In this document: in pieces, positions 10,294 to 48,376 of the stretch
How the letters are laid out: the number at the start of each line of letters is the position of its first letter
How positions within the stretch are numbered: position 1 is the stretch's first letter
Translations under genes and position numbers: made by a program
IMG/VR virus record: IMGVR_UViG_3300013772_000002
Coordinates: 40,817-104,816 of that record
Length of the DNA stretch: 64,000 nucleotides
Source of the DNA: a virus
Direction: 5' to 3' (one strand)
The notes under the pieces: model-generated
Told to the model about the DNA's origin: nothing
The model's database searches: none
The model's input: only the letters and a program-made list of their open reading frames with translations

Positions 10294-10314
10294 GAGATAT
10301 TCCTTCCGTCGTGA

Positions 10315-15751: not shown

Positions 15752-17715
15752 TGCCCCGCGACCCGCGCATGCCAAACATCCCGGCGCCACCTGACTGGGA
15801 CTACCACCAGGGGAAAATCTATCTTCCCCCGACGATTGCCAAGTCAATTAGGGAAGAGAAGAGTGCCGAAGAGAAGGCGATCAAGGGGAAGCTCTTCTCC
15901 AACTGGTCCCGGACAATTACGCGTACCGCCGGCGGCGCCGTTGACCGTTCGCCGAACCGCCCCTCACACGCCCTCCTGAAGTACGTGGCACGTAACTGCA
16001 CGCTGGATTCAGCGATTATCTCGACACTCAAGGCGAACATTTCCGCCTTTACACAAGTCGCCCACGTCGAGGGGAAGCAGATTGGCTTCCGCGTCGTGCA
16101 CAAACGGTACAACGATCCCGCCTGGCAGCCGGACGAGGAGACGTTACACGATATCAATGATCGCTGCCGCCAGATGGAACGCTTGATCCTCAATACGACC
16201 AAGCCCGCCTGCCCTTCGTTCGCCACCTTTATGTCGGCGGCGACCGATGATGAGCTGACAATCGACCGCGCGAACATGGTGATCGTCCCTGACCGCCAGG
16301 GACGTCCCCTTAGTTATCACTATCTTCCCGGCGGGACGCTCTTGCCACGCTTCCTCTATCTCAAAGAGTTCATGGCTCGCTGGGGTAAAGAGGATTCGCT
16401 CTTCTATAATGACGACCGTGCCGCCCAACGTCTTTCCGAGGAGCTGAAACTTAACGGCGTGCGCACTCCCGAGGGGCACGAGATCGACCTGACGCATGCC
16501 GCTTTCGTACAGGTCCTTGATGACAATACCGTCTGTGGCGCTTGGACTGAGAAGCAATTGGCGATTGACATTATCAACCCGATGGTGGAGATCGACCAGA
16601 GTTACTTTGGCACTTCGCCGGTCGAGCAGTCACTCGACGTGAGCTATCTGTGGAACAGTGCCTGGAACTACCAGAAGCAGCTATTCCAAACGACCTGGCC
16701 CGAAGCGATCCTCCTGTTGCACGGCGACTACTCCCCCGAAGGGTTGCAGGGGTTCAAGGACGATGTCCTTGCCTCGCACGGTAACTCTCAACGTCTGCCA
16801 GTGATTTCCGGTGGTCCGAAAGGGGAGACCGACGTCTCGCTCGTTACATTGCGCAATACGCCACAGGACATGCTCTTCGACCAGCTGTTGAAATTCATGC
16901 TCGCGCTGAAGTGCGCCTTTTTTCGCATCCATCCCAGTACGATCAACTTCGCTTCCGAGGGCGCCGCTTCCGATGGCGGTCTGCCCCAAGACCGAAACTA
17001 CATCATCCAGCAGGCCAACGAAGAGGGCAACCGTTCGCGCCTGCGTCGTCGCTTCGGCTGGCTGACCCATCACCTGATCATCCCATGGTACGACGATCTG
17101 ATCGCCATTCCCGAAGGAATGGACATGGTTCCCTTCGAGCAGGTCATTCAACGTGAGATCGAGCTCTCCGGCGCGGGCATCAAGACGAAGAACGAGACGC
17201 GCGCGCAGATCGGTCTTCCGCCCATGCCCGATGGTCTACCTGGCTCCAACCTTGGCGACTGGACTGGATCACAGGTCGATGTCGCGATCGTCGGCGCCAT
17301 CCAGGCTCAGGAAGCGATGAAGCAGCAGCAACAGGCGCAGATGAACCCACAGAATGTCGCCGCACAACAGCCGGGCGCTAGCGGTGGCGACTATGGCGCC
17401 GACCAAGGGATGCCCCAGGGCGGTGCGACCACCCCACCTCCACAGGGTCAACCACCCCAACCCGGCGCCCCGCCGACGGGCGGACCACCCGCGGCGCCGC
17501 CGCCTCCTCCGGCACAAAAGAGTCTCAATCCATTGACGGAAACGGAGGGACATCCCCACCATCGGAAGACACATTACAGTCTTCTCTGGTCGGGTGGCCC
17601 GGTCGTGCCGCGCGGCGGTCTCGGTTCTGCCTACATGGAGGATGACGAGGACGACACTGATGATGGTCCGAATGGTTCGGACGATGATGGAGGCGAGGAT
17701 GGCGACGACGTCTAG
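15751..17715 (+). CDS. Portal protein with a long Q/P-rich and acidic C-terminal tail
   Basis: Follows TerL. YFGTSPVEQ, DMLFDQLLKFMLALKCAFFRIHPSTINF and KTKNETRAQIGLPP are SPO1/Twort-like portal motifs. Confidence 0.9.
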   Translation: MPRDPRMPNIPAPPDWDYHQGKIYLPPTIAKSIREEKSAEEKAIKGKLFSNWSRTITRTAGGAVDRSPNRPSHALLKYVARNCTLDSAIISTLKANISAFTQVAHVEGKQIGFRVVHKRYNDPAWQPDEETLHDINDRCRQMERLILNTTKPACPSFATFMSAATDDELTIDRANMVIVPDRQGRPLSYHYLPGGTLLPRFLYLKEFMARWGKEDSLFYNDDRAAQRLSEELKLNGVRTPEGHEIDLTHAAFVQVLDDNTVCGAWTEKQLAIDIINPMVEIDQSYFGTSPVEQSLDVSYLWNSAWNYQKQLFQTTWPEAILLLHGDYSPEGLQGFKDDVLASHGNSQRLPVISGGPKGETDVSLVTLRNTPQDMLFDQLLKFMLALKCAFFRIHPSTINFASEGAASDGGLPQDRNYIIQQANEEGNRSRLRRRFGWLTHHLIIPWYDDLIAIPEGMDMVPFEQVIQREIELSGAGIKTKNETRAQIGLPPMPDGLPGSNLGDWTGSQVDVAIVGAIQAQEAMKQQQQAQMNPQNVAAQQPGASGGDYGADQGMPQGGATTPPPQGQPPQPGAPPTGGPPAAPPPPPAQKSLNPLTETEGHPHHRKTHYSLLWSGGPVVPRGGLGSAYMEDDEDDTDDGPNGSDDDGGEDGDDV

Positions 17716-17974
17716 CCCTAAGACCACCGTCGGCGACATCGTTATGTTTCATCGCGCGCATGGTGTCCACCGTGGTGTCGTACTCGCTTCTGGCAAGGAT
17801 GGCGCGCGCGTTCTCGATGCTTTCACGGGCGATAAGTTGGAAGTACGTCACGAAGGTATCTATCGTCACATTACTATTGATGCCACCGACCTCCGCGCCG
17901 CTGTTGCCGGATTGCACGGCATGGGCCTGCGCGTTCATTTGACCGACGCGCAACGCATCGCGCTGGAGGAGTAA
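17699..17974 (+). CDS. hypothetical protein (SH3/KOW-like beta pattern)
   Basis: ATG after GGAGG; VGDIVMFH..GVVLASGKDGARV. Confidence 0.6.
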   Translation: MATTSSPKTTVGDIVMFHRAHGVHRGVVLASGKDGARVLDAFTGDKLEVRHEGIYRHITIDATDLRAAVAGLHGMGLRVHLTDAQRIALEE

Positions 17975-17978
17975 TCCC

Positions 17979-18461
17979 ATGCCTACGCATCGTGTTGCCT
18001 GGATTGGCGCCTATGAACCGCTCAAGCCATGGCGTTTCGATACCGGATATCCCTCGATCTCTCTCTTTATGGGGGACGACGTCGATATCTATTTTCGGGC
18101 AACGATGCGTGCCGCCACGACGATCTATACTCCCGATGGGGGCTTTGAGAGTACCGTTGTCGATCTCACTTATGCCAAAATCATCTTTACCCTGACCCCC
18201 GCCGACCCCGACCTGACAGACCCCCAGACGATCACGAAGACGAGCGCTACCGGCGGCGGCATTGTGATCGTTGACGGTCCAACCGGGCAGTTGACGATTT
18301 CGCTTGCCGCCGCGGATACCGCCGACCTGCCAACGACCGTTTACACCGCTGAGTGTCGTGCGTTGTTTACGGACACGGGCAAGATCGGCATGATCGGCAA
18401 GAGTCCCGCCTTCTTCATCCCCACGAGCATTGGCGCGGACGCCTTCAACGCGATTCCATAA
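17979..18461 (+). CDS. BppU-N/Ig-like beta protein; paralog of 54990-55400
   Basis: DLTYAKIIFTL..GIVIVDGPTGQLTISLAAADTADL..YTAE. Confidence 0.6.
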   Translation: MPTHRVAWIGAYEPLKPWRFDTGYPSISLFMGDDVDIYFRATMRAATTIYTPDGGFESTVVDLTYAKIIFTLTPADPDLTDPQTITKTSATGGGIVIVDGPTGQLTISLAAADTADLPTTVYTAECRALFTDTGKIGMIGKSPAFFIPTSIGADAFNAIP

Positions 18462-18471
18462 TAGGAGCCAT

Positions 18472-19200
18472 ATGGCGACGCCCACGCTGCCGGAACAGCA
18501 CAAGTTCAGCTCGAAAATCTTCATCCCGGGTCACGGATGGAAATATAACTACGCGCCCGGCTTATCGTCGACACGCGTGCCGACCTTCGCTGCTGCTGCC
18601 GCGCGTGCGCGATCTGCCGCCACTCCCCCGGGAGGCACGGCGCCACCAACCCTTCCTTCGACCCCATCTCCTCAAACTCCACCCCCGCCGCCCGGTGACG
18701 ATGGCATGATTCGCGTCGGTGACCGGGTTGTTCCACGTGCTGAAGGTAAACGCGCCCGCCGCTCTTTTCGCCCCGATGGCGGACCCGACCCGGACGACGA
18801 AGCCACGGCACAATTCGTTGCTCAGGCGCGTGGTTATATCCGCAAGGCGCTTTTTCTCTATGCCCATGAACGATGTGCACTTGGGCATTTGCCCAATGTT
18901 TGGAGTGCGTTAGAGCCCCACCTAGACGCCGCGCTCGAGGCGGGAGTCGATATGGTTGTCGCCGATAAAGATCGTCTCTCCGCGCTCTTCAAGGCCGCGA
19001 AGGGAAACGCGCATATCGCCGGGCATCTCGCCGCCGCCGACCGCTGGATACCTGCCGCGCATGCCATCTGCGCCGCCGCCAATGTGCCGCAATTTGGCGG
19101 TGAACTTGCTCGGATCGCTCGACCACGCTCAGGTTGGCCAGCGTTCGATGCCGCCATGAGGGAACTTTCTGAGATGCGTCGTGGTACCCCAAATGACTGA
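18472..19200 (+). CDS. hypothetical head-associated protein
   Basis: ATG after AGGAG. HKFSSKIFIPGHGWKYNY, a Pro-rich linker, and IRKAL/LFKAA motifs. Confidence 0.65.
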   Translation: MATPTLPEQHKFSSKIFIPGHGWKYNYAPGLSSTRVPTFAAAAARARSAATPPGGTAPPTLPSTPSPQTPPPPPGDDGMIRVGDRVVPRAEGKRARRSFRPDGGPDPDDEATAQFVAQARGYIRKALFLYAHERCALGHLPNVWSALEPHLDAALEAGVDMVVADKDRLSALFKAAKGNAHIAGHLAAADRWIPAAHAICAAANVPQFGGELARIARPRSGWPAFDAAMRELSEMRRGTPND

Positions 19201-20548
19201 TGCACTTGGTCCTGTCCCCACACTTCATCTTGACCACCACGGCTTACCCGTGGCGTTTGGAGACGTGCCAGCGGGGGCATATAGGATCATCACCCTTCTC
19301 GAGGGTCCCCTGACGGGAAAGGACATCCTCATCCGTAAACGCCCCGATAACGCCGTCGATCTCTTTCTCGTCCCCGAGAACAAGATTGGCAAATCCCTGC
19401 GCCTCGATGGTATCGGTCACGAACCTGATCGGGAACCGCTAGAGAAGACCTTTATCGAGCATCTCGGTTCTCACCTTGCCGCCCAATCCGCCGCAAAGAC
19501 CGTCGCTCCGACGCCGCCGCCACAGGCATCGTCAACATGGACGAGTACGAACAAGCCGACACATATAGCGCACGTCTCATTGCCATCAGGACAGACAAAA
19601 TACATCGGTATGCACGGCACTCCCATGCCTGATCTCGAGTCGTATAAGATTGGCAATCCCGCCGATCGTGCCGATGGTTCGATCGGTATCCGTAATGGGC
19701 AGAAGTTGGCGATGACGCCCGTTGAGCGCGCGACCAATCGTGCCTACGGCGTGACGAATCCGACTGCGGACCTCCCCTCCGCCCGGATCGGCACGAATGC
19801 GCAGGAGGCGGTCAGGCGGCGCGTCTCGCATCCTGACTTCCGGATGATCGACGAAACAGGTAAATCGAAGTCGGATCGTTGGGACGACATGGAACGCAAG
19901 GTATTGGCGGGCGGTCTGGTACCGAGCGACCATCCCTATCTCTCACCGCGCGCCTACATGGGCATTGGCCCTGACGGTCATGTCATTCATGTCGCCACCG
20001 CCGCGACGGAAAAGATGCGTCCCGAACTGCCGCAGTCTAGGGGCGAGAGCTATGCGTATGGCGAACATAGTCACAAGAGTACGGGCGACTACCCCGATCG
20101 CGGCCATGCCGACGATTTCCTCCATCATGCGATCTACAACCCCGCCTGGGTGACGATGCAGCGACGACATGGCAAGGACATCATGTACCGTCACGTCTAC
20201 CCGCGCGCGGACGGCAAGAACAGCCAGTTGGAACATGACGCGCCGGGCGGCCTCACGTACGTAATGGAGCGCATCCGTCACCCTAATGACCCAAACGGTA
20301 ATCACTGGAACCTGCAGACCGTGATTACGAACCAGGGTTATAGTCGTCACCACCCAACCCACGATCAATACGTCGCGGAGTCACATCGTCTCGCTGACGA
20401 TAATCGTGGCGCGCGCTATATCCGCAGTAGCGAGAATCCGAATGACCCGGGCGTCCAGGCTGCCGTTGCCGCCAGCGCCAAGCGGTATGAGTACCTCTCA
20501 AACAAGAACTCTCCCAAGATTGCCGATCCAGACACGGGAGGGCGCTAA
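19193..20548 (+). CDS. hypothetical protein with a possible C-terminal PBECR-like RNase
   Basis: IGKSL/LEKTFIEH motifs, a Pro linker, and C-terminal HAIYNPAWV..IMYRHVY..TYVMERI..WNLQTVIT. Confidence 0.6.
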   Translation: MTDALGPVPTLHLDHHGLPVAFGDVPAGAYRIITLLEGPLTGKDILIRKRPDNAVDLFLVPENKIGKSLRLDGIGHEPDREPLEKTFIEHLGSHLAAQSAAKTVAPTPPPQASSTWTSTNKPTHIAHVSLPSGQTKYIGMHGTPMPDLESYKIGNPADRADGSIGIRNGQKLAMTPVERATNRAYGVTNPTADLPSARIGTNAQEAVRRRVSHPDFRMIDETGKSKSDRWDDMERKVLAGGLVPSDHPYLSPRAYMGIGPDGHVIHVATAATEKMRPELPQSRGESYAYGEHSHKSTGDYPDRGHADDFLHHAIYNPAWVTMQRRHGKDIMYRHVYPRADGKNSQLEHDAPGGLTYVMERIRHPNDPNGNHWNLQTVITNQGYSRHHPTHDQYVAESHRLADDNRGARYIRSSENPNDPGVQAAVAASAKRYEYLSNKNSPKIADPDTGGR

Positions 20549-23500
20549 TGCCCGTCACGCCGTCAACAATCCCACCGAACAATGTTCCCGTCCGCCTTGC
20601 CGCTAACGCGGCGCAGGGAACGGCGCCGACGATGGGGCAAATACACGGTATTAGTAATGACCTGAAATTGGTGCCATCTCCGAACGCGGGAAAGACTGAC
20701 CTCACTCCGGGCGTGCCTGGTGGCATGGTGCCGAAACTCGCCCTCAATCTTCCCCAACGTCCACGCATCACGGCTGATCCGGTCGAAGATCAGCCATCAG
20801 CCAATGCATTTCCGGTTGCCGGTGGTGGATCGCCTCCGCCTCCCGCCGGTTCCGCCGTGCATCGTGCGGTTCCCCGGCTCTTCGGCGGACTCAATAACGC
20901 CAATGACCTGCGTCTCGATTACGCCGCCGCCGTTCGTCATCCCGACGGCGACTGGTTCGCGGACGGCGGCTACGCCCCGCCCCGCGTCACCGACGACCCG
21001 CTCGCGAATCGCGCGTACGGCGCTCAGCGCGCCGCCGCCCACACAAGCGTTGCCCAGGGTGCGCCCGCCGCTTGGGTTGGTCCAGACGGCGCGGTCGGTC
21101 ATGGCATCTCGCTCCACGATCGCGAAGGTAACTTGATTGGTCATACAATGCGCCACTATCATGACGACGGCGCCGGTGGTATCGCGACACGCATGCACCC
21201 GATGACCCTCGCTCCAGGGATTAATCCGGCGGTCGCGCACCAGCACGCCCATGCCGAGGATCAATGGCTCAGGGGGCATGGCGTGACACGCAAGGAGCGG
21301 TCGGTCGGCGCCGGGCAAGAAGCACACGACGCGGCGCGCGAGGGCTACGACTTTGCCTCGCCTGCCCAGGGCTACAATGCGACACAGCGCTATCACCGCT
21401 ATCTGATGGAGCGCGGCCATACGCGGGCGATGAACGAGTGGCAAGATCGGTTGGCCGCCGAGGGGCGAGACGCGATGACGCCCAACGAAATCGTCACGCA
21501 CGCTCCCTTCCAGACACAGGTAACACAGCGCGGTGAAAACGGTCATGCCGAGGACTTTCCGACGGTCGGTGCGGGCACTGCCTACATGCTCGAACATCAG
21601 CAGCCCTATGAGGCGGTGCAAGATTTTGATTCGCCCGGCGATCGGATCGGCGTTGCCCAACGCGCCGTGGAAATGAGCAAGTCCCTTGCTCCTCCGCCGA
21701 TGCCGAAGATCGATGTCCATGCGGAGCCGCCGCGTGGCGCTTACCGCATTCCGCCCGTACCGAAACCGGCGCCCGCCCAGCCGAAAGCGGCGGAACCGTG
21801 GCATGGCACCGCTGAACGGGCGGCCGCGACCTGGCGCTCACCGACGCCTGAACCAGAAGGATGGGGCAAACCGAAGCCGCCGCCCGAGTCGGTCACTGGT
21901 CCTGCCGTCCATGGCGCGACTCCCTACGCCAACGTGACGCCAACGCATATTCCCCACGAACCGGATGCCCCGCCGGTCCACCAGATGACCCAGGCGGAAT
22001 TCCTCAAGACTGGCCACCTCCTCTACCCGAGCAGCGAAGATAATGGCTACGGGAACACCGCCCGTATGCGTCTGACGCCGGAGATTGGCGGCAACCTCAA
22101 TCGCTACGCCGAAGAGGTCGGCGGCGCATCAGTACGCGGCAGGCATCGCAAGGCGGGCAACAGCGACCCGACCGGCGGCGGTCGTCCTCCGGAGCACGCG
22201 GCGATCCAGACGGAGCGGCGCGCTGACCTTCGGGCGGCGATGGAGAAGCATGGCGTCCTCTGGCATCACGACGAGCAAGGCAATCCACAACGAATCGACA
22301 ACCTCGACGCCCTGCCCGAGCATATCCACGACAATGGCAACATCTTTGCCTTCCCGCCTGATGCGCCCAAGCAGGACGCGAAGACGGTCTGGGGCAGTGG
22401 CTTCCGCGCCGACCAGGGTCACTCCCCTTACAGCGACGAACCCGATACCAGCGAGGACATGACCGATAGTTATACCGCCGGTCATCACGGTAAAGTCGTC
22501 GACCATAACTTCCTCTTCGACGCCGACGATGACTTCGAGGAGAACGAGCACGAAGGGACACCCAAGAAGCCCGCGCCAGACCCCAAGGTCGTCCTGGCAC
22601 GTCGGGACATGATCGGCAACAATGGCAAGAAAGTCCATGCGAACCTCGTACGCGCGGCCCTCATGCACGGCGACGAGCATGTCCCCGACTCCGTGCTCGC
22701 CGACTATCCGGGGTTGCGCGAGAAAGTCGACGCGGAGCGGCTTGAGAAGTTCCGTCCGCAGATGGAATACAACGCCACCCTCCGCCCCCACCTCGACGAT
22801 TTTGCCGTCAAGGCGCGCAAATTTATCCAGAACAGCGTCGACAAGAAGATGGAAGGGCATCTCGCGGCCGTCAAGCGGGACAAGCCGAATCACATCCCCG
22901 AGTACGGTGATTTCGATACCCATCCCTCTGCCAGTGACCGTCGGCTGGCGGCGTTGGACTATGAGACCGTCGCCCCCTTCGACGTTCCGGATGCCCATGC
23001 GGCGATGGAGTCTTGGCCCAAGGGCGCGCGGGAGCTCCCGAAAGTCGGTCAACTCGCCAAGCACTACGACGCCCATGCCGCGCTGACGCGCCACCATAGT
23101 GGCGCGGACCTCTATCACTACACCGTCTCCCCCGGTCATTTCTCTGACTTCCAGCCGGAGCGCAAGACCGAATACGAACCGGAGACCTCCTCGCGCAACG
23201 CCACCTACCTCGCCGAGACCCCCTTCGGCGCGGCAACCGGCGGCCGGGGTGGCTCGGAGAACCCCGACCCCTACTGGGGGGACGTCCCCCCGGCGCACTC
23301 TAGTCCCCCACCCACACTGCCGCTCGTCGGTCACCCGGAACGCCGGGACTATTCGCATCCCGGCACACGCGTCTTTGCCGTCAAGCATCACGGTCTTCGC
23401 ACCTTGGGCGAGGACATCCCCAAGCATCCGATCGCCAACGAGGCTGAGTGGCATAGCCATCGCGCCCTGATCCGCCGACTGGCAGAGAAGCGCGATGCGA

Positions 23501-31461: not shown

Positions 31462-31781
31462 TCCCGTTTGACGAGAAAACATCATTGACTGATTTGAGGG
31501 AGCTTTACCCGGACCCCCCTCATAATTTGGTGGTATCTTCGCCGCCCTTAATACATCATGGCTACTTTCTCGGTCACGCGACGGTTTGTGTTCCCGCTCT
31601 CAAAGAATGCCTGGAGATCGCGAAGAAACGCGGCGACCAGGCCGCCGTCGCGCACCTACGCGCCCATGCTCAGGCATATGCCAAGTGGAAGAAAGAGCGC
31701 ACCGATGCGCGCTCAGTCCAGGAGTCGGCAACGCGCCGCTCCACCGGACCACGCCCCCAAACGATGCCGTCTGGCATCTAG
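31458..31781 (+). CDS. hypothetical protein
   Basis: GTGA overlap with the stop of the giant gene; 107 aa. Confidence 0.55.
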   Translation: MIPFDEKTSLTDLRELYPDPPHNLVVSSPPLIHHGYFLGHATVCVPALKECLEIAKKRGDQAAVAHLRAHAQAYAKWKKERTDARSVQESATRRSTGPRPQTMPSGI

Positions 31782-31807
31782 TCCCGCATTCCCGCAGCGA
31801 GGTTTGA

Positions 31808-34800
31808 ATGGTAACGAAACGATCGCCTGTGGACGATCTTGGAAAAAATCCAGATACGTCCCCCGACTACAGCGCGTACGGTCGCTGGGGGAAACAGCTC
31901 ACTGACGAGCCGTTTCAAATAAGCCGTCATGGCAAAGGCGGTGTTCCCCATTTCGATCCGGACAACAATGTCTCTTATGACAAACCTGCCCAGGGACATA
32001 AGCCCAAACCAATTGTGGACCCAGCCGGCAAGACCGTCAAACTCGGCAACGACCAGCATGGCTTTCTGCAGGTCTTTCAGCAGGCGGCACTGAAAACGGG
32101 CGTGACCGTGCCCACTCACGTGCTCGTCCTGATGAGTGATGCCGCGAACGCCGCCGCCAAGACGAGCGTTGACGATTTGCGCGCCCACATGGAGCGCGGC
32201 ACCAAGGGCGCCCATCGGGAACATGCTCGGACGCGGATGTATAACGAGCCCTTCCTAGCGGCGTTGAAGGTCGGCGAACAGCACCTGCAAGGTCAGGACT
32301 TGCGCAAATTGATGACGCGTGCCGCCGGTGGGTTTCGTGATGGGGCATCACATAGTCTCTCCGACGGTACCGAGTCGCCGATTCCCCTTCCCCTCGCTTC
32401 GGTTGCTCGTCATCACCTGACAGGTGGTGAACGGCGGGATGGTCTGGACGTCAAGGACATCCTCGATGAGCGCGACAAACCCTTCCATGACGGTCTGAAG
32501 AAGTACCAGAAGGCGAGCGAGGCGGCGGCCAAGAATCCCGCCTCCACCGCGCATATGCAAGCGGCTGCCGCGCATCGCTCTTCGCTCGGTGAACTGGGTA
32601 AGCACCACACCGATCATCTCAATCAATTGCGTCAGCGTACCAAGGATGAGGACGCGAAGCGACCCGCCGCCGAAAAGGAGCAGCGCTCTCGCGAGGTCGC
32701 CGGGCAATGGGATCAGGAAGCGGACGCGAACCTGCAACCAATGAGCGACCAGGAATTGGCTTCATTAAAAGAAGTTGTCCAGCGTCTCGTCGCTGATCCG
32801 TCGCAGTTCGCCGAGGTGAACGCACTACCGAACGCGGCACAGGGCGGTAAGGCGCACGACTCGGGACGCGCTTCCATCGTCCGCGCCCTCGAAGAGGCGG
32901 TTAAGTCGGAATCGGCTCGCCCACCCGATCAGCGTACTCCTGCCGAGACCCTGATCGCGCGCACGCTCGTTCGTGCCATGGCACCGCGTGCGAATGCACA
33001 TATCAGTCGTGCCGAGAAGACGGGTGAGGCGAAGAACTACCACGTGCTTGCTCACCGAGACATTCATACCGATCGGCATGCGATCGCGCGCGCGATCGTC
33101 GAGTCCGCGCACAATACGCCGGATCAATCAATATGCGCGATCATGCATCTCGACGCTTATAGGGTCGCTCGCTATATCACTGCCAGCCTCCCCGGACCCG
33201 ACGATATGCTCCGCCATCTGACCGAGCAAGGGCGCGTGAAGCCGAAACCACCCGACGCCAAGGACCCAAAATTGATGCCCGGCGGTAAAAAGCCAGGCGC
33301 GAGTGGTGATCCGAAAACTGCCGGAGCAGGCGTACCTCCACTCATCCTCAAGGCGAACAACGTCCCTTTTCTAAAAGCCTCCGGGTGGGAGGGTGCCGAC
33401 CAATGGTCGCGTTCACGCCCCCGCTCCGGAGGCGGTAAGCCGACCCTCTATCGCGATCAGCGTCCCGCCAACCTTGGCGCCGTCCAAGTTGACGCATCAA
33501 ACTCAACGCCGGTCCGCAATGCGCTCGGACGTGGATTCGATGATGACCAGGCAATGCGCGACGCACGCGACACTTTCAACACGATGCGGGACAAACATCT
33601 TTCCCAGCCATTGAGCGCGCGTGACGATTCGCACATTCCCGAGATGGTTGCACACGGTACCGACCTCCTCCATGGCCCGATGGCGCCGATGCGCCGCCAG
33701 ATGAACAAGATCGGCGGTCCTGAACTCGTCCACCGCTTCCTGACCCACTATGGAGCACATCCACGCGACAGTTACGACGAGACGATGCCGCACAAACACT
33801 TCGATGACCACGTCGGTCGCGCGGCGGGCAATGCAATCGCCGATCATCTCTATGATGAGGAGTATGGCAAGGCACGGCAGGGCGCGGAGGACGATTATAC
33901 CGCGCGACGAGACTCGCACAAAATATCTCCTGATACCCAGAAGGAAATTGATGATGTCCATCGCCGCTACTCCAATCCTGGCAGCAGCACCGACTGGACG
34001 CGCAAGGTTCGCTTGCATGAGAAAGAGGCTCATATCAACAACATTATTCGTAACCAGTCAGCGACAGAACCTGGCGTTAATGAGACTGGGGGACAAAAGT
34101 TTCTGCGCGAACTTCGTGACTCGACGCGCGGTCAGATGGACGTGATGACGCGTTCGGCCCGTAATCCCGCTACCGCGATTTTTGGTGATCTTGGCGGTCG
34201 TGCAATGGATGCCGTTCAACGCGGCATTGACTTGCGTCGCGCACACAAAACCGCGCTCGATGCCGTCAAGAAACGGATGAATGGACTCTATTCGCGCGCT
34301 GAGGCCGAGCAATCAGCGCCTGCGTTTACGCCGACCGCCCCGTCGGGTGGTGGACCCGTCGGTGGTAAGACGTCCAATTATAGCCGGACTGGACCGATGG
34401 TGCCGACGACGCGGCGGTATGGCGGACAAAAACGCGCGGAACCCGTGGTCGAACAACCGCCTGCGCGCATTCTCCGTGACCCGCGCGCCATGACTCGAGC
34501 GGGCATGAACGGGTCTAATGCGCCGACGCTTTCCCCCGAACGTGTCGTACGCGATCCGCGTGCAATGACGCGCCAGGGTGAATCAGATACCCCATCGATC
34601 GCCAGCAACGGTGCGACGCCAATGGTGCCTGCCGCGCGCGCGCACGTAGAATCACCGACCGAGTCCGTTACGAACGTCGATCCAGCGAAGACGCAGATGC
34701 GTTCCCTGGATGACGGCACCAACGCGCGCCCAGAGGCACAGCCCGTTCGTCGCGCATTGCCCGTCGGCGGCGGCGGGCACGGCGGCTCCGACGGGCGGTT

Positions 34801-36025
34801 CATCGCTGACACCCTCGCTACCCTCTCCCGATACGCCAACGCGACCGGAAATCCTGCGAGGCATCGGACACCCGGCGGCGCCGACGCGCGCCTAGCCGCC
34901 AACGCGCGCGAGAACGCCAACGCGCGCCTAGAGGAACAGCCTGTTCGTCGCGCTAACCCGCACGTCGCCGCACCGCCCGACGTAGGGCGTGGTGACGATC
35001 CAACTGGGGAGATCACCGAGGGCGTTCCTCCAACGAATGCCCCTTCCCCAGGCGGGTCGCCACCAATGGACGCGACACCAACATTGGCCGCCGATCCGCC
35101 CGCCGCGACTCCCAATCGCGCGCGGGAGTGGGCAGACTCGATGCTTTCCGGCAAGGGGCGGCGCGTTACGGTCCCACAACACGTGCGTCAGGCTGCCAAC
35201 GATCTGGGCGTCCCGTACGATCCGAACTTGACTGCACGAGAGTTTGCGAAACTCATTCGTGACGGCGAAGGTGGTGCGGTGACGTCGGGCGCAACGCCAA
35301 CACTGACCACCACCCCGCCACCTTCGCCTCTCGCCGCGCCGTCATCTACCGCCGACAGTGGATCGACCGTCCAGGGAAAACGCGCACGAGATATTGCGAC
35401 CGGAGTAGTCCCTGTTCCCACTCCACCCGTCATCAGTGGCGCGAACTTGACTGGCAGGGATGCAAGGGATGCATACGGCCAAAGCCAGGAAGTCGCCACT
35501 CACAAGAAACTTGGTACCTATGTCCTTCACCCCCACGAGGACGGCTATCGGATCAGTCGAGATGATGGCAGTGAGCCGATGAGTCTCAAAGCCATCAAGG
35601 GGCACGACGTCTTCCCGACCAAGGAAGAAGCACTCGATCACTTCCAGTCAGCCAAGGGACACATCCCCGGTTACAATCTCTCGCATTCTTACTTCGGCGA
35701 TACCGCTGCACCGGAGGACGATGAAGAGCCTACATCACCACCGCCTGCTCCCGCCACACCACCGCCCCCGCCATCTGCACCGACACCTACCCAAGAGCCG
35801 ACCATTCCGCCTCCCGCGCCACCATCCAGTTTCGACTATAGCGACGTTAACGTTCCACGACGCTCGTTGCGCGCCGGTACTCCGATTACAACGTCATCGA
35901 CCCCGGAACCACCTGAATCAAAAGCCCCGAAAGTAGTAAAGCCAAAGAGCTACAGTGTTGCAGATTTGCTCGCCGCTAAGAGCATGACCCCGATGCTCAC
36001 CTACGACCGTATGCCTCACGCATAG
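31808..36025 (+). CDS. large low-complexity protein (1405 aa), putative internal virion protein
   Basis: Long ORF rich in Pro/Ala/Arg/His, with ILKA, FLKA and AAKS motifs. Confidence 0.75.
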   Translation: MVTKRSPVDDLGKNPDTSPDYSAYGRWGKQLTDEPFQISRHGKGGVPHFDPDNNVSYDKPAQGHKPKPIVDPAGKTVKLGNDQHGFLQVFQQAALKTGVTVPTHVLVLMSDAANAAAKTSVDDLRAHMERGTKGAHREHARTRMYNEPFLAALKVGEQHLQGQDLRKLMTRAAGGFRDGASHSLSDGTESPIPLPLASVARHHLTGGERRDGLDVKDILDERDKPFHDGLKKYQKASEAAAKNPASTAHMQAAAAHRSSLGELGKHHTDHLNQLRQRTKDEDAKRPAAEKEQRSREVAGQWDQEADANLQPMSDQELASLKEVVQRLVADPSQFAEVNALPNAAQGGKAHDSGRASIVRALEEAVKSESARPPDQRTPAETLIARTLVRAMAPRANAHISRAEKTGEAKNYHVLAHRDIHTDRHAIARAIVESAHNTPDQSICAIMHLDAYRVARYITASLPGPDDMLRHLTEQGRVKPKPPDAKDPKLMPGGKKPGASGDPKTAGAGVPPLILKANNVPFLKASGWEGADQWSRSRPRSGGGKPTLYRDQRPANLGAVQVDASNSTPVRNALGRGFDDDQAMRDARDTFNTMRDKHLSQPLSARDDSHIPEMVAHGTDLLHGPMAPMRRQMNKIGGPELVHRFLTHYGAHPRDSYDETMPHKHFDDHVGRAAGNAIADHLYDEEYGKARQGAEDDYTARRDSHKISPDTQKEIDDVHRRYSNPGSSTDWTRKVRLHEKEAHINNIIRNQSATEPGVNETGGQKFLRELRDSTRGQMDVMTRSARNPATAIFGDLGGRAMDAVQRGIDLRRAHKTALDAVKKRMNGLYSRAEAEQSAPAFTPTAPSGGGPVGGKTSNYSRTGPMVPTTRRYGGQKRAEPVVEQPPARILRDPRAMTRAGMNGSNAPTLSPERVVRDPRAMTRQGESDTPSIASNGATPMVPAARAHVESPTESVTNVDPAKTQMRSLDDGTNARPEAQPVRRALPVGGGGHGGSDGRFIADTLATLSRYANATGNPARHRTPGGADARLAANARENANARLEEQPVRRANPHVAAPPDVGRGDDPTGEITEGVPPTNAPSPGGSPPMDATPTLAADPPAATPNRAREWADSMLSGKGRRVTVPQHVRQAANDLGVPYDPNLTAREFAKLIRDGEGGAVTSGATPTLTTTPPPSPLAAPSSTADSGSTVQGKRARDIATGVVPVPTPPVISGANLTGRDARDAYGQSQEVATHKKLGTYVLHPHEDGYRISRDDGSEPMSLKAIKGHDVFPTKEEALDHFQSAKGHIPGYNLSHSYFGDTAAPEDDEEPTSPPPAPATPPPPPSAPTPTQEPTIPPPAPPSSFDYSDVNVPRRSLRAGTPITTSSTPEPPESKAPKVVKPKSYSVADLLAAKSMTPMLTYDRMPHA

Positions 36026-36035
36026 GAGAAGACCC

Positions 36036-39000
36036 ATGGCGATGTCGCCGCTCGAACACTACTTGCACGAACGCGACCTCAAGCGCGGCGAACGGTCGCT
36101 TCTCCGCATGGAGTCATACGATCGCGGCACTTCGCTTATCAAGGCAGCGGAACCACAGCCCGACGATGAGGATCGCGCGCGCCAGACGAACATGCGTGCG
36201 GACTTCGCGGCGAAAATGTATCACCGCCTGCGCAATAGTCGTGTTCCCGAGGAGGAGATCGTCACTCAGATCGCCGCCAAGATCGGCGTCCGTCCCGAGC
36301 GCGTCGATGCCTATGTCAAGCATGGCCGCCAGCGCGACGTTCAGCGTGCCGAGTCACAGAGCGCCGACCTACGCACTTCGACAACTAAGATCGCCGGTGG
36401 TCAGCGTGCCGATGCGCGGAGCGCGGCGAATGCCCAACTCGCCCCGATGTCTGTTATGGAAGCCAAGCAGATGAAGATGCTGATGGCGAAGGACGACAGG
36501 GGAGAGGCAACTGACGAGGAGATTGAAGACCTCAATGGCCTGATGCATATCAAGGCAGGTCGCAACTCGAAGGACGCACAGGCATATCGCGCCAAAAATG
36601 GCGAACCCGACGCCGCCGTCACACAACCGGAAAAGCCGAAACCACAAGCTGTCGTGCCCGCCGATCCCAATGCTCCCGAAGACGCCGCTTCCTCTGAGGC
36701 ATCCGCGTCCGCCCCCGCCAGCAGCCAGGCTGCCGCGCCACCGCCCGCCGAGTCTGCACCGCCAACCGAAGAGGAGATGGCGCCGTCGGCAGGCAGCGCC
36801 GATCCGAATGGCCCCCAGGAGGAGGAAGCGCCTCAGGGCGGGGGAGACTCGCAACTCAACCTCGACGCGATGATGGCCGATGAGGGCGAGGAGGAGAAGC
36901 CGAAACCGAAACGCAAGAAGAAGGTCAAGAACCCGAACGAAGTGCCCGAAGGCGCGGTCGAGGTTCCCGAGGAGCCCCAAGCCGCTCCCCAGCCCGAAGA
37001 AGCGCCCGCGCCCGAGGAGGCAGGTCCTTCGGAATCAGAAACGCCACCGGACGATCAAGCAAATCCCATGATGGCCGACGAGCCCGAACAGGTCGCGCCG
37101 CCACAGCAGCAAGAGGCAGCCGCGCCGAAACCAAAGCGCGTCCGTCGTCAACGAGCCGCCGCGCCTCAAGAAGGGATGGAAGAAGGACCGAAAGCCGCGC
37201 ATGGTGGTCCGGTAACCGAAACCGGGGAAGTGATGGGGGGCGGCGGTACCCAGCGTAAGCAGGGCCTTGGTGTCGATACCGTCCGTGGACCGAACGGTGG
37301 CTTCTATCAGGTGACGCAGAACGGCAACTATCGCCGCATCAGCCAGCGCGAGTACTCCGAACGACAGGGCAAGGGAAACCAGCCCCGCCACGCAAGCAAA
37401 CTCGGTCCCGAGGACGATCGCAACGGTCCTATGGACGCCTATCATCGCTGGAACGAGATGGAGGGAATGGGGCACAAGCCCTTCCATAGCTCCAACGTCA
37501 CCGCGACGACGCATCACAAGACGGGCGAATCGATCGACGAACTTTCCGGTCCCGAGGCGATGCATGGAACCGATGCCGCGCGCGAAGAGTACCAGGAACA
37601 CATGTCCCAACAGGCAGAGGAGCGCAAGGCCAGTCGCGAAGCCGACCATTCCCTGACAAACCACGCACACAAATATGAGCGTCCCGAGACGCCGGGCGGT
37701 CATTTCCAAGGGAAGAAAAACCTCACCACCGATGACGTGCGCGCCCATATCCGCGCCCTCTCCGAATTCACGGGGCTCGGCGGCAAGGCGGGTCACCGGA
37801 TGAGCTGGGTCGTCGAGCCCGAATATCACACCATCTACCGTGACGGTAAGAAGTACCGCGTTCGTAAGAATGAGGGCGGTGGCCGGGCGATCGACTTCGA
37901 TGTCAAGGAGAACGAGGACGGCTCGATGACGGTGCAGGGCAAACTGCTCAGTTACGCGCCGACACACAAGAAACTCTCCGCCAAGCAGATCGCCTACTTG
38001 ATTGCTACCGGACAGATTCATCCTGCTAATAACAAGCATAACCCCGAGTCCGTCAAGGACTTCGGTCAGGAAGTGACTCTCTCCGCCGAAGACCTCAAGA
38101 ACGGCAATATGTTGCAACTCAACAACCTGATGTCACACTGCGCTGAGACATCACACAACATGCGTGGCGCGCGCGTCAATCGCCGAATGCACGATCTTTA
38201 CGAAGCGCACGGCGCCGGTCACCACAACTGGAGGTATGACCAGATGTTCAATACCGCGGGTCGTGGTGGCACCGGGGCGCATGCCCAAGGACGCGCGGGC
38301 GGCGGATCGTACGAAGCGCACGGCGGTAAAGAGCAGCCTCTCGCCGCGTCGATGACCAGTCTACGCGAAAGCCAGATGGCCACCTATCTCGGTCCTGACT
38401 GGCGCGCGAAGCTGGCAACGGCGGTCGCGCTACGTAAGGCGGGCGTTCCCATTGAGGCGACCGAGGTAGATGGCGAGCGTTATCTGCATACGCCTGTCCT
38501 CGTTTCGCTTACGAAAGCGGATACGATGATGTCGCAACAGGCAATGATGCGCGCCGCGTATGCGATGATCGCCGCCTCGGGTGGTTCACAGCCACCTCGA
38601 ATCGCCGGAGACCCACTTGGCACGGTCGAGCGCCTGCCGCCCCCACCTGCCACCCATACGCCGACACGCCAGCCGCGCGAGGCAGCCGCGCCCAGCATGC
38701 GTCCGCCACGGACACCTAGCAAGTTCTTTGAGACCGTCAATGGTGGTCCGGCGAGCTGGCGACCCGCGATCGGAACGTACGACGGGCGTGGCAATCGCCA
38801 AGGTCTTGCTTCGGCAGTACTCGCTGCTCTCAAGGGAGGCAATCCCGATGGTGACTGGGAGTCAACTGTCTCTTCGCATACTTGGCGATACGGTCCCATT
38901 CGCATGGATAAGGTTCATGCCGTAGGGGTGAAGGAGCGAAGCTTCAGTCCTGAGAAGGCTGACATGTACCGCCAAAACTATCTCGATGGCATTGCGCTAC

Positions 39001-39179
39001 CGCCGATTGTCTGCATCGCGCATGGCGCGTCCAATCATATTCTGGATGGTCGTCATCGGTATGTTGGGGCCTTCGATGCGGGCATGCGCTCACTTTTCGG
39101 TTTCATTGGCACCCCCAAGCGCAATGCCGCGGGTTACCAAACTTCGGACGGTCCGACGGCGACTCGTCAGAATGGCTGA
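36036..39179 (+). CDS. large protein (1047 aa) with an acidic disordered region and a C-terminal ParB/Srx-like domain
   Basis: LPPIVC..HILDGRHRYVGA at the C-terminus; LIKA/LRKA/LTKA motifs; AGGAG RBS. Confidence 0.8.
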   Translation: MAMSPLEHYLHERDLKRGERSLLRMESYDRGTSLIKAAEPQPDDEDRARQTNMRADFAAKMYHRLRNSRVPEEEIVTQIAAKIGVRPERVDAYVKHGRQRDVQRAESQSADLRTSTTKIAGGQRADARSAANAQLAPMSVMEAKQMKMLMAKDDRGEATDEEIEDLNGLMHIKAGRNSKDAQAYRAKNGEPDAAVTQPEKPKPQAVVPADPNAPEDAASSEASASAPASSQAAAPPPAESAPPTEEEMAPSAGSADPNGPQEEEAPQGGGDSQLNLDAMMADEGEEEKPKPKRKKKVKNPNEVPEGAVEVPEEPQAAPQPEEAPAPEEAGPSESETPPDDQANPMMADEPEQVAPPQQQEAAAPKPKRVRRQRAAAPQEGMEEGPKAAHGGPVTETGEVMGGGGTQRKQGLGVDTVRGPNGGFYQVTQNGNYRRISQREYSERQGKGNQPRHASKLGPEDDRNGPMDAYHRWNEMEGMGHKPFHSSNVTATTHHKTGESIDELSGPEAMHGTDAAREEYQEHMSQQAEERKASREADHSLTNHAHKYERPETPGGHFQGKKNLTTDDVRAHIRALSEFTGLGGKAGHRMSWVVEPEYHTIYRDGKKYRVRKNEGGGRAIDFDVKENEDGSMTVQGKLLSYAPTHKKLSAKQIAYLIATGQIHPANNKHNPESVKDFGQEVTLSAEDLKNGNMLQLNNLMSHCAETSHNMRGARVNRRMHDLYEAHGAGHHNWRYDQMFNTAGRGGTGAHAQGRAGGGSYEAHGGKEQPLAASMTSLRESQMATYLGPDWRAKLATAVALRKAGVPIEATEVDGERYLHTPVLVSLTKADTMMSQQAMMRAAYAMIAASGGSQPPRIAGDPLGTVERLPPPPATHTPTRQPREAAAPSMRPPRTPSKFFETVNGGPASWRPAIGTYDGRGNRQGLASAVLAALKGGNPDGDWESTVSSHTWRYGPIRMDKVHAVGVKERSFSPEKADMYRQNYLDGIALPPIVCIAHGASNHILDGRHRYVGAFDAGMRSLFGFIGTPKRNAAGYQTSDGPTATRQNG

Positions 39180-39459
39180 ACGACGCCGCGGTGCGCTCTG
39201 CCCCCACTGTGGGGGCGAGACGTACCTGCTTGAGGCGAAAGAGAACCCCGGCGCCTATCAGTATATCGGTAAGGGCGTACGCTACCACCCGGAGGACGGA
39301 AGCACACGCTGGAACTGTCCGAAGTGTGGCGCCGAGCACCGACATACACATGAAGTCACCTTGACGAAAGGGGGTGGTACTAGCACCCGCTCACGTCTCT
39401 CAACATTGCCACCACCGATTCCTGTTTTGCCGCTTTCGAAGCGGATCGCACCTAAGTAA
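39172..39459 (+). CDS. small zinc-ribbon protein
   Basis: CPHCG...CPKCG. Confidence 0.65.
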   Translation: MAERRRGALCPHCGGETYLLEAKENPGAYQYIGKGVRYHPEDGSTRWNCPKCGAEHRHTHEVTLTKGGGTSTRSRLSTLPPPIPVLPLSKRIAPK

Positions 39460-41060: not shown

Positions 41061-41090
41061 TTGACGAGACAAGAGAAACATGAGATAGTG
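41061..41090 (+). promoter_or_regulatory. promoter of the MTase gene
   Basis: TTGACG-N17-GATAGT. Shares CATGAGATAGTG with the recA promoter. Confidence 0.6.
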
Positions 41091-41133
41091 ACGGTGGCGA
41101 TTGAGCCACCGTCACTTATGTTTGGGAGCGATC

Positions 41134-41964
41134 ATGCCCTTAGAACCTGCGGCTCGCGCGACGATTATTACCGGCGACGCGGTACGCACGTTGGCATCGA
41201 TCGACGATGCAACATGTGCCTTGACGCTCTTTAGTCCGCCTTACGATAAGGTCCGTGACTATGAAGACCATCCCACTTACGACAGTAGGACGCTCGGTGA
41301 TGAATTGCTACGTGTGACGATGGACGGCGGTATTTGCGCCGTCGTGATTGGCGACGGTACGGAAAAATTCGCCAAGTCGCTGACTTCATTTCGTCTCGCC
41401 GTCGATTGGTGCGATCGGGTGGGGTGGCGTCTCTTCGAGTGTTGTATCTACCAGCGCGACGGTCGACCCGGCGCTTGGTGGAGCAAACGTTTTCGTGTCG
41501 ACCATGAGTATCTCCTCTTTTTCCTCAAGGGCGCTCGTCCACGTTACTTCGACAAGACGCACCTCACGATTCCAACGAAACACGCCGGGGCCGTCTGGCA
41601 CGGAACGCAGCGCCATACGGACGGCACGCTGACAAAGATTGGCCCGAAGGCGGTCTCCGCGACGAAGTGTCGTGGCACAATCTGGCCTTACGCGACGAGC
41701 AATAGCGAAGGGAACAAGGAGAAAATGCGTCATCCGGCCACCTTCCCCGACAAACTGGCCGACGACGTGATTCGCTGTTTCTCGCGCCCCGGAGACCTCG
41801 TGCTTGACCCGATGTGCGGGAGTGGCACGACATTAGCGATGGCGCTACGGGCAGGACGCTCGGCGATCGGGATCGAAATCGCCGAGGACTATGCGACACT
41901 TGCACGCGAGCGTATTGCACGGGAACAGGGTGGGTCTGTACTTGACAATACACTCGTAGCATGA
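41134..41964 (+). CDS. beta-class DNA amino-methyltransferase (N4-C/N6-A)
   Basis: FSPPY catalytic motif, HEY, HPATFP, then VLDPMCGSGTT and GIEI. Confidence 0.92.
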   Translation: MPLEPAARATIITGDAVRTLASIDDATCALTLFSPPYDKVRDYEDHPTYDSRTLGDELLRVTMDGGICAVVIGDGTEKFAKSLTSFRLAVDWCDRVGWRLFECCIYQRDGRPGAWWSKRFRVDHEYLLFFLKGARPRYFDKTHLTIPTKHAGAVWHGTQRHTDGTLTKIGPKAVSATKCRGTIWPYATSNSEGNKEKMRHPATFPDKLADDVIRCFSRPGDLVLDPMCGSGTTLAMALRAGRSAIGIEIAEDYATLARERIAREQGGSVLDNTLVA

Positions 41965-41971
41965 GATAGTG
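41942..41971 (+). promoter_or_regulatory. promoter of recA
   Basis: TTGACA-N17-GATAGT with an extended TG. Confidence 0.65.
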
Positions 41972-42018
41972 GGGGCGATCCATCAGGATCGTCTTTCTCA
42001 TTTCAAAGGAGTTCACGC

Positions 42019-43520: not shown

Positions 43521-43542
43521 ATTTGTGACCGATGGCAATGAT

Positions 43543-43574
43543 GGGGCGGCGAATTGCGTCGCCCCTTTCTTTCT
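43543..43574 (+). terminator. Rho-independent terminator
   Basis: GGGGCGGC-loop-GTCGCCCC followed by TTTCTTTCT. Confidence 0.75.
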
Positions 43575-44766: not shown

Positions 44767-44784
44767 TTGCGTTCCCGGAGACCC

Positions 44785-45681: not shown

Positions 45682-45698
45682 TCGGAGGCGACACTTCC

Positions 45699-48356: not shown

Positions 48357-48376
48357 CTCTCGGAGGACACACACCA

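Follow-up and report, generated by a model that had tools for sequence, protein, structure and literature searches.

This study examined the head-gene region of the virus represented by IMG/VR record IMGVR_UViG_3300013772_000002, using a window of 64,000 nucleotides (positions 40,817 to 104,816) that constitutes the last 64 kb of the 104,816-bp record, for which CheckV estimated a completeness of 67%. The virus is an uncultured myovirus whose head genes have distant counterparts in Herelleviridae; a megablast comparison of positions 17000-40000 with 50,697 phage records yielded no match, so that nothing close was found at the DNA level. Between the portal gene and an adaptor-like gene lies a block dominated by one open frame encoding a giant protein of 3637 amino acids (aa). 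This giant protein shares a short lysine-centered motif with the capsid protein, the scaffold, and the head protease of the same phage, and the head protease probably divides it into individual enzymes, which would be carried inside the capsid. The genes concerned are listed below; strict sites are matches to the motif defined later in the text, and the arrow marks the predicted cut.

15751-17715, + strand: portal protein, 654 aa (phrog_2662, E 4.5e-13; homologs in the related records G001-G003)
18430-19200, + strand: protein of 256 aa with one strict site, K139 (18844-18846)
19181-20548, + strand: His-rich protein of 455 aa with sites K71 (19391-19393, IGK↓SL) and K89 (19445-19447, LEK↓TFIEH)
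20548-31461, + strand: giant polyvalent protein, 3637 aa in one open frame, with Pfam domains and seven strict sites
31808-36025, + strand: protein of 1405 aa with zero strict sites
36036-39179, + strand: protein of 1047 aa with zero strict sites
39612-41057, + strand: gene at the end of the block, resembling adaptor or neck genes (phrog_772, E 1.2e-17; PDB 8q01_b, E 0.021)
44755-45681, + strand: head maturation (prohead) protease (phrog_1028, E 5.4e-26)
45648-46652, + strand: scaffold-like protein, in which K196, K225, K239, and K291 are strict sites
46768-48300, + strand: major capsid protein (MCP; phrog_752, E 3.8e-61)
51361-53484: tail sheath

The initial annotation had described a block at 17699-39459 with the portal on one side and the adaptor-like gene on the other, and this description was upheld: the block lies on one strand and measures 21,761 bp (34% of the window), and the interval contains tightly packed open reading frames (ORFs) of 60, 160, 256, 455, 3637, 107, 1405, and 1047 aa. 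The protein sizes given earlier were also borne out (242 aa from the ATG at 18472, 451 aa from the ATG at 19193, and 3637, 1405, and 1047 aa), the first two being ATG versions of the longer open frames of 256 aa (18430-19200) and 455 aa (19181-20548). The same strand and tight packing extend over 13691-41057, and no strong terminator-like hairpin was found on the + strand at 17.7-39.5 kb. The counts obtained in promoter and terminator scans were not above those of shuffled sequences, and the scans therefore serve only as weak consistency evidence. The interval is best explained as an accessory part of the operon of head genes, variable in its content. For the portal, the Pfam Phage_portal match (E 7.4e-5) was below the cut-off. 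The PHROG name of the gene at 39612-41057 is tail fiber protein, and its only PDB sequence match is the adaptor/neck protein 8q01_b (E 0.021); the name adaptor is plausible only. A homolog of this gene is located 5' of the protease gene in 8 of 17 related loci.

When the record was searched with its own MCP, a second match was found inside the protease gene. The results revealed 75% identity over 40 aa between MCP aa 32-71 (46861-46980) and protease aa 184-223 (45304-45423); the probable start of the protease is M11, which gives a coding region of 44785-45681. The shared block starts immediately after a lysine in both proteins, K44 in the MCP and K196 in the protease, and K187 lies nine residues before K196.

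46822-46824, + strand: MCP site K19, in the N-terminal propeptide
46897-46899, + strand: MCP site K44 (F-A-K↓T-F-S-S), in the N-terminal propeptide
45313-45315, + strand: protease C-tail site K187 (F-A-K↓S-L)
45340-45342, + strand: protease C-tail site K196 (I-A-K↓T-F-S-S)

These sites resemble L-A-K↓T-L-V-H, L-L-K↓A-L-V-H, L-L-K↓T-F-V-H, and L-A-K↓T-L-I-H in the giant protein. We therefore tested the pattern [LIFMV].K[STA][LFIM], that is, hydrophobic-x-K↓[S/T/A]-[L/F/I/M] (the strict motif), on 122 ORFs, chosen greedily across the entire record, by using regular expressions, shuffles (200 for sets of ORFs and 1000 for single proteins), and a position weight matrix (PWM). The protease, scaffold, and MCP together contained 9 sites versus 0.7 expected (0/200 shuffles), and the ORFs from the portal to the 1047-aa protein contained 11 versus 2.3 expected (0/200), with a weak excess in the other 110 ORFs (15 versus 8.6; 6/200). 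Among the single proteins, sites were counted in the giant protein (7 versus 0.98; 0/1000 shuffles), the scaffold (4 versus 0.24; 0/1000), the MCP (3 versus 0.25; 1/1000), the 455-aa protein (2 versus 0.14; 6/1000), the protease (2 versus 0.18; 12/1000), the 256-aa protein (1 versus 0.06; 60/1000), and the portal (1, K31 at 15841-15843, versus 0.18; 169/1000).

The initial annotation had proposed a simpler tag, a lysine followed by Ser, Thr, or Ala, said to be present in each of the large island proteins and to address unrelated effector domains to the head. The strings that it quoted were all located, namely IRKAL, LFKAA, IGKSL, LEKTFIEH, AAKSM, and LRKA in the island, IAKSI and AQKSL in the portal, and ILKA at 33350, FLKA at 33374, LIKA at 36141, and LTKA at 38514. 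Nevertheless, the bare K[STA] tag occurred at chance level in every island protein, as judged by 500 shuffles: 41 observed versus 35.3 expected in the giant protein (76/500 shuffles reached the count), 18 versus 17.0 in the 1405-aa protein (226/500), 9 versus 12.8 in the 1047-aa protein (461/500), 6 versus 4.3 in the 455-aa protein (128/500), and 2 versus 2.3 in the 256-aa protein (374/500). The portal gave 7 versus 4.9 (102/500), and the whole island 86 versus 80.4. The statement that each protein has the motif thus holds for this trivial form only, the specific form being absent from the 1405-aa and 1047-aa proteins. The extended form was found as claimed, four times in the giant protein (KTLVH at K1076, KALVH at K1565, KTFVH at K2239, and KTLIH at K2875), with a single further copy (KTFIEH) in the 19193 ORF. 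In the giant protein, K[TA][LF][VI] occurred 4 times versus 0.25 expected, a count reached in 0/500 shuffles, with His after every copy; two of the four copies (K1565 and K2239) are paralogous through an internal duplication. The island proteins had also been called His/Pro/Arg-rich and largely low-complexity. They were found to be rich in His (4.9% versus 2.7%) and Pro (8.9% versus 5.7%) but not in Arg (7.3% versus 7.9%), and the low-complexity claim failed (low-entropy fraction of 0.21 in the island versus 0.175 elsewhere, and 0.16 in the giant protein). What survives of the shared tag is the sharper motif, which links the head proteins with a multi-enzyme protein; an addressing function is unsupported.

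We considered whether the lysine motif might nonetheless serve as a modular delivery tag that directs effector domains of unrelated kinds into the head, instead of or besides serving as a cut site. The motif is common to the head proteins and the giant protein, it occurs near the N-terminus of the 455-aa protein (K71/K89), of a 1772-aa protein of G003 (K16), and of a 1529-aa protein of G002 (K6), and T4 propeptides are stated, in a passage of PMC10052503, to target proteins into the prohead core. Besides the chance-level counts of the bare tag, several observations oppose this explanation. Most sites in the giant protein are internal, where they follow the C-terminal edge of a module and precede a Pro-rich linker. 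An all-against-all BLASTP of the island proteins (E 1e-3) detected no shared flanking sequence, in a test that short tags would escape. The specific form is missing from two of the three largest proteins, and a motif of five residues offers little binding surface. An addressing role is accordingly unlikely. As to a peptide of the T4 capsid-targeting type, shared by cargo proteins at the N-terminus and removed by the protease, N-terminal sites were seen only in the 455-aa protein and the portal.

To examine the conservation of the motif, we collected related head-gene loci from viral contigs; a single MCP query retrieved 0 loci, and an alignment query retrieved 17 loci. K19-S-F and K44 of the MCP were invariant in 7/7 homologs, down to 35% identity, while the flanking residues drift. 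All 17 of the related IMG/VR loci exhibited K-S-F and K-A-[LV] in the capsid N-terminus, with both lysines kept, and all 17 had a protease homolog in the same place. K187-S188 of the protease was invariant in 13/13 aligned proteases. The protease tails and scaffolds of the relatives contained the motif many times, and in several of them the tail again mimics the capsid N-arm (...LENLD). Motif counts were based on 12 of the 17 loci, with L003, L016, and L019 excluded for short upstream flanks and L010 and L013 as near-duplicates of L009 and L012. In these 12 loci (L004-L018), the core genes contained 100 strict sites versus 7.3 expected, the + strand ORFs upstream of the protease contained 35 versus 11.7, and the + strand ORFs downstream of the capsid gene contained 3 versus 11.0. 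The downstream depletion looks as if the motif were selected against in tail and neck proteins of the relatives, which is not so in the late genes of the window.

Two further observations concern these head proteins. Within each phage, the copies in the protease tail and in the MCP N-arm are more alike than either is to its orthologs, suggesting, at the level of sequence, that the two co-evolve; mimicry of the MCP N-arm may serve to incorporate the protease into the procapsid. In addition, the capsid proteins of L005-L019 carry a variable low-complexity stretch (~10-70 residues, Gly/Ala/Thr/Asn-rich) between K↓A-L and ALRLENLD.

We then trained a PWM solely on the head-core sites of the relatives (94 distinct 11-mers), with a threshold that passes 90% of the training sites. 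In the genome analyzed here, this PWM produced 5 matches in the head core, 1 in the other late genes, and 0 in the remaining 18,616 aa of ORFs. In the island it produced 4 matches (K71 of the 455-aa protein and K378, K1076, and K1565 of the giant protein), compared with a mean of 0.4 and a maximum of 3 in 100 shuffles.

The domain content of the giant protein was determined through Pfam, PHROG, homology, and structure searches. The following domains were located in it.

24070-24642, + strand: ADP-ribosyltransferase (ART) domain 1, H-Y-D type, at about aa 1175-1365 (Pfam ART-PolyVal/DUF3990; many homologs)
25321-25830, + strand: third ART-fold domain, without a Pfam family, at about aa 1592-1761 (homologs and AlphaFold model)
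26080-26652, + strand: ART domain 2, paralog of domain 1, at about aa 1845-2035 (Pfam ART-PolyVal, aa 1857-1951)
28234-29142, + strand: 2H phosphoesterase and PGDYG domains (phrog_14859, E 5.4e-18)

The giant protein thus belongs to the polyvalent proteins: besides two domains of the ART-PolyVal type it contains another of ART fold, a 2H phosphoesterase with PGDYG, and several unassigned modules. The ART-PolyVal match (PF18760, aa 1857-1951) had a whole-protein E value of 1.6e-8 and 35.8 bits against a cut-off of 31.2, and Pfam identified a DUF3990/PARP-like stretch at aa 1188-1257. Both of these ART domains are contained in an internal duplication (aa 1053-1571 and 1737-2245, ~45% identity). 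The columns H71, Y99, and D240 were invariant in 16/16 aligned sequences, both copies of the giant protein included, and by their sequences the two domains fit H-Y-D ADP-ribosyltransferases. Homologs of the third ART-fold domain include stand-alone proteins of 159 and 191 aa. Its AlphaFold model, built with a 6-sequence alignment, had a pLDDT of 78; among the matches listed by VIA-align, 50/50 were ART folds (best Z 6.6, a middling value, with a root-mean-square deviation of 3.7 over 96 residues), and the best Foldseek rows were Tpt1/KptA and other ART folds (best E 2.4e-3, Tpt1). The 2H domain (~aa 2563-2737; 2_5_RNA_ligase2 E 1.7e-11, LigT E 8e-9) contains two H-x-T motifs (HITL, aa 2598 and 2691) and is followed by the PGDYG domain at aa 2777-2865 (E 1.5e-9). 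An assignment of the 2H domain as anti-CBASS (Acb1) was rejected, the match being not significant (E 0.16). Family searches assigned no domain to aa 1-1076, 2240-2560, and 2876-3637. A fourth ART-like domain at aa ~2925-3060 was not established (DUF7002 E 0.013; hhalign probability of 3% to the third ART-fold domain); the region at aa ~2915-3075 (29290-29772) has a possible ART-/DUF7002-like module ('LYHST...I..HGL') that is weakly common to the C-terminus of the G003 1772-aa protein (L021:11698-12132 region; BLASTP E 6e-4).

A library search with aa 1046-2245 of the giant protein yielded 543 proteins at E <= 1e-3, mostly of 1000-3100 aa, which is the picture of polyvalent proteins. None of 2353 scored candidates was a full-length homolog (2000-6365 aa), a result that is not evidence that none exist, and a metagenome scan with aa 1046-2901 found no relative. 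No HExxH motif occurs in the giant protein, and neither Pfam nor PHROGs placed a peptidase family in it.

The predicted sites in the giant protein were then compared with the edges of these modules.

21679-21681, + strand: predicted cut site K378 (MSK↓SLAPPP), passes the PWM
23773-23775, + strand: predicted cut site K1076 (LAK↓TLVH), passes the PWM
23902-23904, + strand: looser site K1119 (ITK↓SV), paralogous to K1793, with a Pro-rich linker from +1
25240-25242, + strand: predicted cut site K1565 (LLK↓ALVH), with a linker from +3, passes the PWM
25924-25926, + strand: predicted cut site K1793 (LNK↓SIPQ), within a Pro-rich linker or at its beginning
27262-27264, + strand: predicted cut site K2239 (LLK↓TFVH), paralog of K1565
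28225-28227, + strand: predicted cut site K2560 (VEK↓SF), 3 aa N-terminal to the 2H domain
29170-29172, + strand: predicted cut site K2875 (LAK↓TLIH), 10 aa after PGDYG, with a linker from +7

K1565 and K1793 bracket the third ART-fold domain, and K1565 and K2239 end the two duplicated modules. A Pro-rich linker lies within 12 aa downstream of the site, or contains it, at 4/8 sites, compared with 14/157 of all lysines of the giant protein. In the model of the third ART-fold domain, pLDDT was below 50 for the 13 residues after K1565 and for residues 196-208. Only 3/149 non-self best stretches in the library search table cross K1565 or K1793, and two of these bridge both ART copies.

A position at module ends also invites a purely structural explanation, in which the motif of the giant protein is an end-of-domain feature, such as a helix cap before linkers, that was spread by duplication and is not cut, its likeness to the MCP and scaffold sites being coincidental. 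K1565/K2239 and K1119/K1793 are indeed paralogous pairs in the 45%-identical duplication, the extended form ending in [VI]-H is particular to the giant and 455-aa proteins, the background ORFs show the mild excess given above (15 versus 8.6), and R[STA][LFIM] is enriched everywhere. However, K378, K1076, K2560, and K2875 lie outside the duplication. K1076 sits in an 8-residue stretch that is missing from the paralogous copy, and therefore at least one site was gained or lost on its own. The same excess appears in the nonhomologous G003 protein described below, and a PWM derived from the head proteins of other phages picks 3 sites in the giant protein and 0 in the 18,616 aa of non-late ORFs. 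We thus consider the structural explanation improbable.

The comparison of related loci that the initial annotation had called for, with variable cargo and a conserved tag expected, was borne out by G003, a syntenic relative of 105.9 kb in which the portal gene (9667-11091) is followed by the capsid gene 18 kb further on. The ORFs in this gap encode 244, 435, 319, and 1772 aa. The 1772-aa protein contains InPase (E 3.7e-33) and DUF7178 domains and not ART-PolyVal, and has the same motif (6 strict sites versus 0.84 expected), with K1414 and K1617 flanking InPase and K16 at the N-terminus. The 435-aa protein has 2 strict sites versus 0.16 expected.

According to passages of the survey by Iyer, Burroughs, Anand, de Souza, and Aravind (2017; PMC5512222), phage polyvalent proteins are expected to be packaged and to enter the host along with the DNA, and they would have to be processed into units, for which embedded peptidases (a zincin MPTase and, rarely, a C-terminal assemblin-like peptidase) were proposed. 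The giant protein resembles these proteins in being a multi-domain protein among virion genes, with ART-PolyVal (H-Y-D) and 2H domains in this genome and InPase in G003; it has several disparate effector domains, domains of the polyvalent repertoire, and a position among virion genes. It differs in having no embedded peptidase, which is frequent and not obligatory in polyvalent proteins, and in that its junctions carry the trimming-site motif of the capsid. Because the junctions carry the motif of the MCP trimming sites, cutting in trans by the separate prohead protease is suggested.

The island proteins might instead act late in the cytoplasm, as enzymes or assembly factors, and never be packaged, with any cutting taking place outside the capsid. 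Neither a family nor the motif nor a homolog in the relatives was found for the 1405-aa and 1047-aa proteins, and the portal gene is far from the head genes in G001 and G002, which indicates that a portal-adjacent position is no fixed rule. Nevertheless, the block sits between the portal and the neck and head genes on the same strand, its domain set (ART-PolyVal and 2H, with InPase in G003) is the one assigned to packaged polyvalent proteins in the text of PMC5512222, and the sites match those of proteins processed inside proheads. This alternative is thus considered very unlikely.

On the basis of these findings, the motif reads best as a processing site rather than an addressing tag, a reading that draws on sequence comparison. 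It is favored because the motif is kept exactly where such proteases act, in the propeptide of the capsid protein, in the scaffold, and in the tail of the protease; because its conservation runs across a deep lineage; because it is depleted in the downstream genes of the relatives; and because it is found again between the modules of a polyvalent protein lacking a peptidase of its own. We consider it rather likely that the prohead protease recognizes and cuts the strict motif, that it divides the giant protein into enzyme modules inside the capsid, and that these modules enter the host with the DNA. The prohead protease of the phage (44755-45681) would recognize hydrophobic-x-Lys↓Ser/Thr/Ala-Leu/Phe/Ile/Met, trim the capsid protein after K19 and K44, cut the scaffold at at least four sites, and cut its own C-tail at K187/K196. 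It would also cut the 455-aa protein at K71/K89, for which an N-terminal propeptide is predicted from sequence, and the giant protein at up to 8 junctions, giving about 9 pieces, with predicted lengths of 378, 698, 43, 446, 228, 446, 321, 315, and 762 aa, and freeing single enzyme modules in the capsid. The freed modules would enter the host together with the DNA. The cutting after lysine, the packaging of the giant protein, and the injection of its pieces are steps that we infer.

Several observations weigh against processing of this type. The 1405-aa and 1047-aa proteins contain no strict site (0 versus 0.38 and 0 versus 0.27 expected), the portal site K31 is not kept, no site being present within aa 1-90 of the portals of G003 and G002, and the large proteins beside the head genes of G002 (with UvrD, DprA, and HD domains) are not clearly enriched in the motif (3 versus 1.1, 3 versus 1.3, and 4 versus 1.8). 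The relative-trained PWM passes only 3/8 sites of the giant protein, since the giant protein prefers Thr at P1' and the core sites of the relatives have Ser or Ala. The sites K1565 and K2239 are paralogous, and therefore the independent events are fewer than the count suggests. K357 of the MCP is a strict match within the mature fold, and the motif alone is thus insufficient for cutting. For the protease, Pfam yielded nothing at E <= 0.01, and a profile built from 13 proteases gave no PDB match better than E 0.22; its family and specificity rest on the PHROG name and inference. We found no literature report of the mature N-terminus, or of experimentally mapped cut sites, of a Herelleviridae MCP. 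Finally, an 869-aa ART protein of the Bacillus phage YungSlug, considered below, has 0 strict sites versus 0.97 expected.

Processing by a prohead protease is also described for the giant phage SPN3US: passages of PMC10052503 report that the head protease gp245 cuts capsid, portal, and ejection proteins and itself at an A-X-E motif and that 13/14 mapped sites remove N-terminal propeptides. The two systems are alike in that one protease and a short shared motif serve the capsid, portal, internal proteins, and the C-tail of the protease itself, the cuts being predicted from sequence in the phage studied here. They differ in that P1 is Lys rather than Glu and in that the sites predicted here mostly lie inside one 3637-aa chain, where enzyme modules join.

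Lysine at P1 has a precedent in HK97, the gp4 protease of which cuts gp5 after Lys103 and before Ser104. Cleavage after Lys and before a small residue at a capsid maturation site is common to HK97 and the present prediction. For the protease analyzed here, sequence searches gave no Pfam S78 or PDB match, and HK97 has no cargo polyprotein. Prohead proteases that act on motifs also include gp21 of T4 and gp175 of phiKZ.

The relationship with Herelleviridae was examined through the MCP, which is ~25% identical to the MCPs of SPO1-like Bacillus phages. In PDB, the MCP profile matched SPO1 Gp6.1 (9vel, E 1.2e-50) and the phi812 MCP (5lii, E 1.6e-28), and both of these homologous chains carry the motif at the aligned place. 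In YungSlug, a cultured member of this family, the motif (as K↓[SA]-[LF]) occurs in the MCP propeptide, in the protease tail, at 7 scaffold sites, and at K10 of the portal, and the protease tail copies the MCP N-arm, as in this phage. Unlike in this phage, no 3637-aa polyprotein was seen in Herelleviridae, and the portal-side ART protein of YungSlug lacks lysine sites. That protein, an 869-aa 'PARP polymerase' (L025:9345-11954) encoded immediately upstream of the portal gene, represents, at smaller size, an ART protein beside the portal.

Passages of PMC5512222 describe enzymes of very large size that travel in the phage head and enter the host along with the DNA, namely the Dar head proteins of P1, of which DdrB is processed before packaging, and the N4 virion RNA polymerase. 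The giant protein is comparable in being very large and in its proposed carriage in the capsid, whereas no sequence relation was found between these proteins and the island proteins. In the literature searched, the terms 'polyvalent protein' and 'prohead protease' occurred together only in PMC5512222, the latter in the title of a reference, and no paper was found that links polyvalent proteins to cutting by a prohead protease.

We tentatively propose a broader scheme, which is possible although on balance somewhat doubtful: a 'lysine junction code' common to the capsid lineage, from Herelleviridae to high-GC soil myoviruses, in which any motif-flanked enzyme module can be strung into a capsid-loaded polyprotein and freed by the ordinary head protease. 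Under this scheme, short stretches carrying a cut site could come and go independently, as in the 8-residue stretch at K1076. Polyvalent proteins are thought to be a toolkit against host defences in the first minute of infection, and a chain of 400 kDa would have to be turned into working enzymes. If an ordinary head protease cuts such chains at capsid-type sites, cargo modules could be predicted from sequence by cutting at the motif, and the exchange of cargo among phages would need no dedicated peptidase. If the broader scheme holds, phages could exchange cargo freely and chosen proteins could be delivered with phage particles, and the arrangement could be borrowed for loading chosen proteins into capsids. 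A protease that cuts after Lys would be invisible to standard tryptic digests, which may explain why such processing is unreported.

Among the remaining island proteins, the 256-aa protein had no match in Pfam and PHROG searches. The 1405-aa and 1047-aa proteins had no Pfam or PHROG family, even when searched as pieces at E <= 10, and no counterpart in 5 related records; the best score of the 1047-aa protein in a protein atlas (0.76) was at noise level. Both are at most candidate members of the cargo. The C-terminal 147 aa of the 1047-aa protein (38736-39176) were considered as a ParB-like domain. The stretch IVCIAHGASNHILDGRHRY ('ILDGRHRY') looks like what we take to be the ParB/DdrB type, and the assignment was dropped: no database support was obtained, with no Pfam or PDB match and no homolog of 91-293 aa, and a single-sequence AlphaFold model of this C-terminus was unusable (pLDDT 41). 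A small ORF at 38986-39459 overlaps the 3' end of the 1047-aa gene in another frame. It has two CxxC pairs and weak zinc-ribbon matches (E 5e-4 to 9e-3), and its probable start is near 39172, an internal Met that lies 8 nucleotides before the stop of the 1047-aa gene.

On the other side of the block, a 686-aa ORF (13691-15751) precedes the portal gene with a one-base overlap and occupies the position of a large terminase; it had no sequence match in Pfam, PHROG, or PDB. Between the adaptor-like gene and the head genes lie a DNA N6/N4 methyltransferase gene (41101-41964) and a RecA gene (42019-43101; Pfam E 1.9e-118). This insert (41061-43565) is flanked by the strongest + strand terminator-like hairpins (41087-41116 and 43543-43565) and has promoter-like sites at 41061 and 41942. 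The insert is missing from the relatives, because their adaptor homolog is ~1.7 kb nearer to the capsid gene. Directly 3' of the capsid gene, a 350-aa ORF (48323-49375) without a family match encodes an extremely His/Asp/Pro-rich protein, which may be a decoration or head-internal protein.

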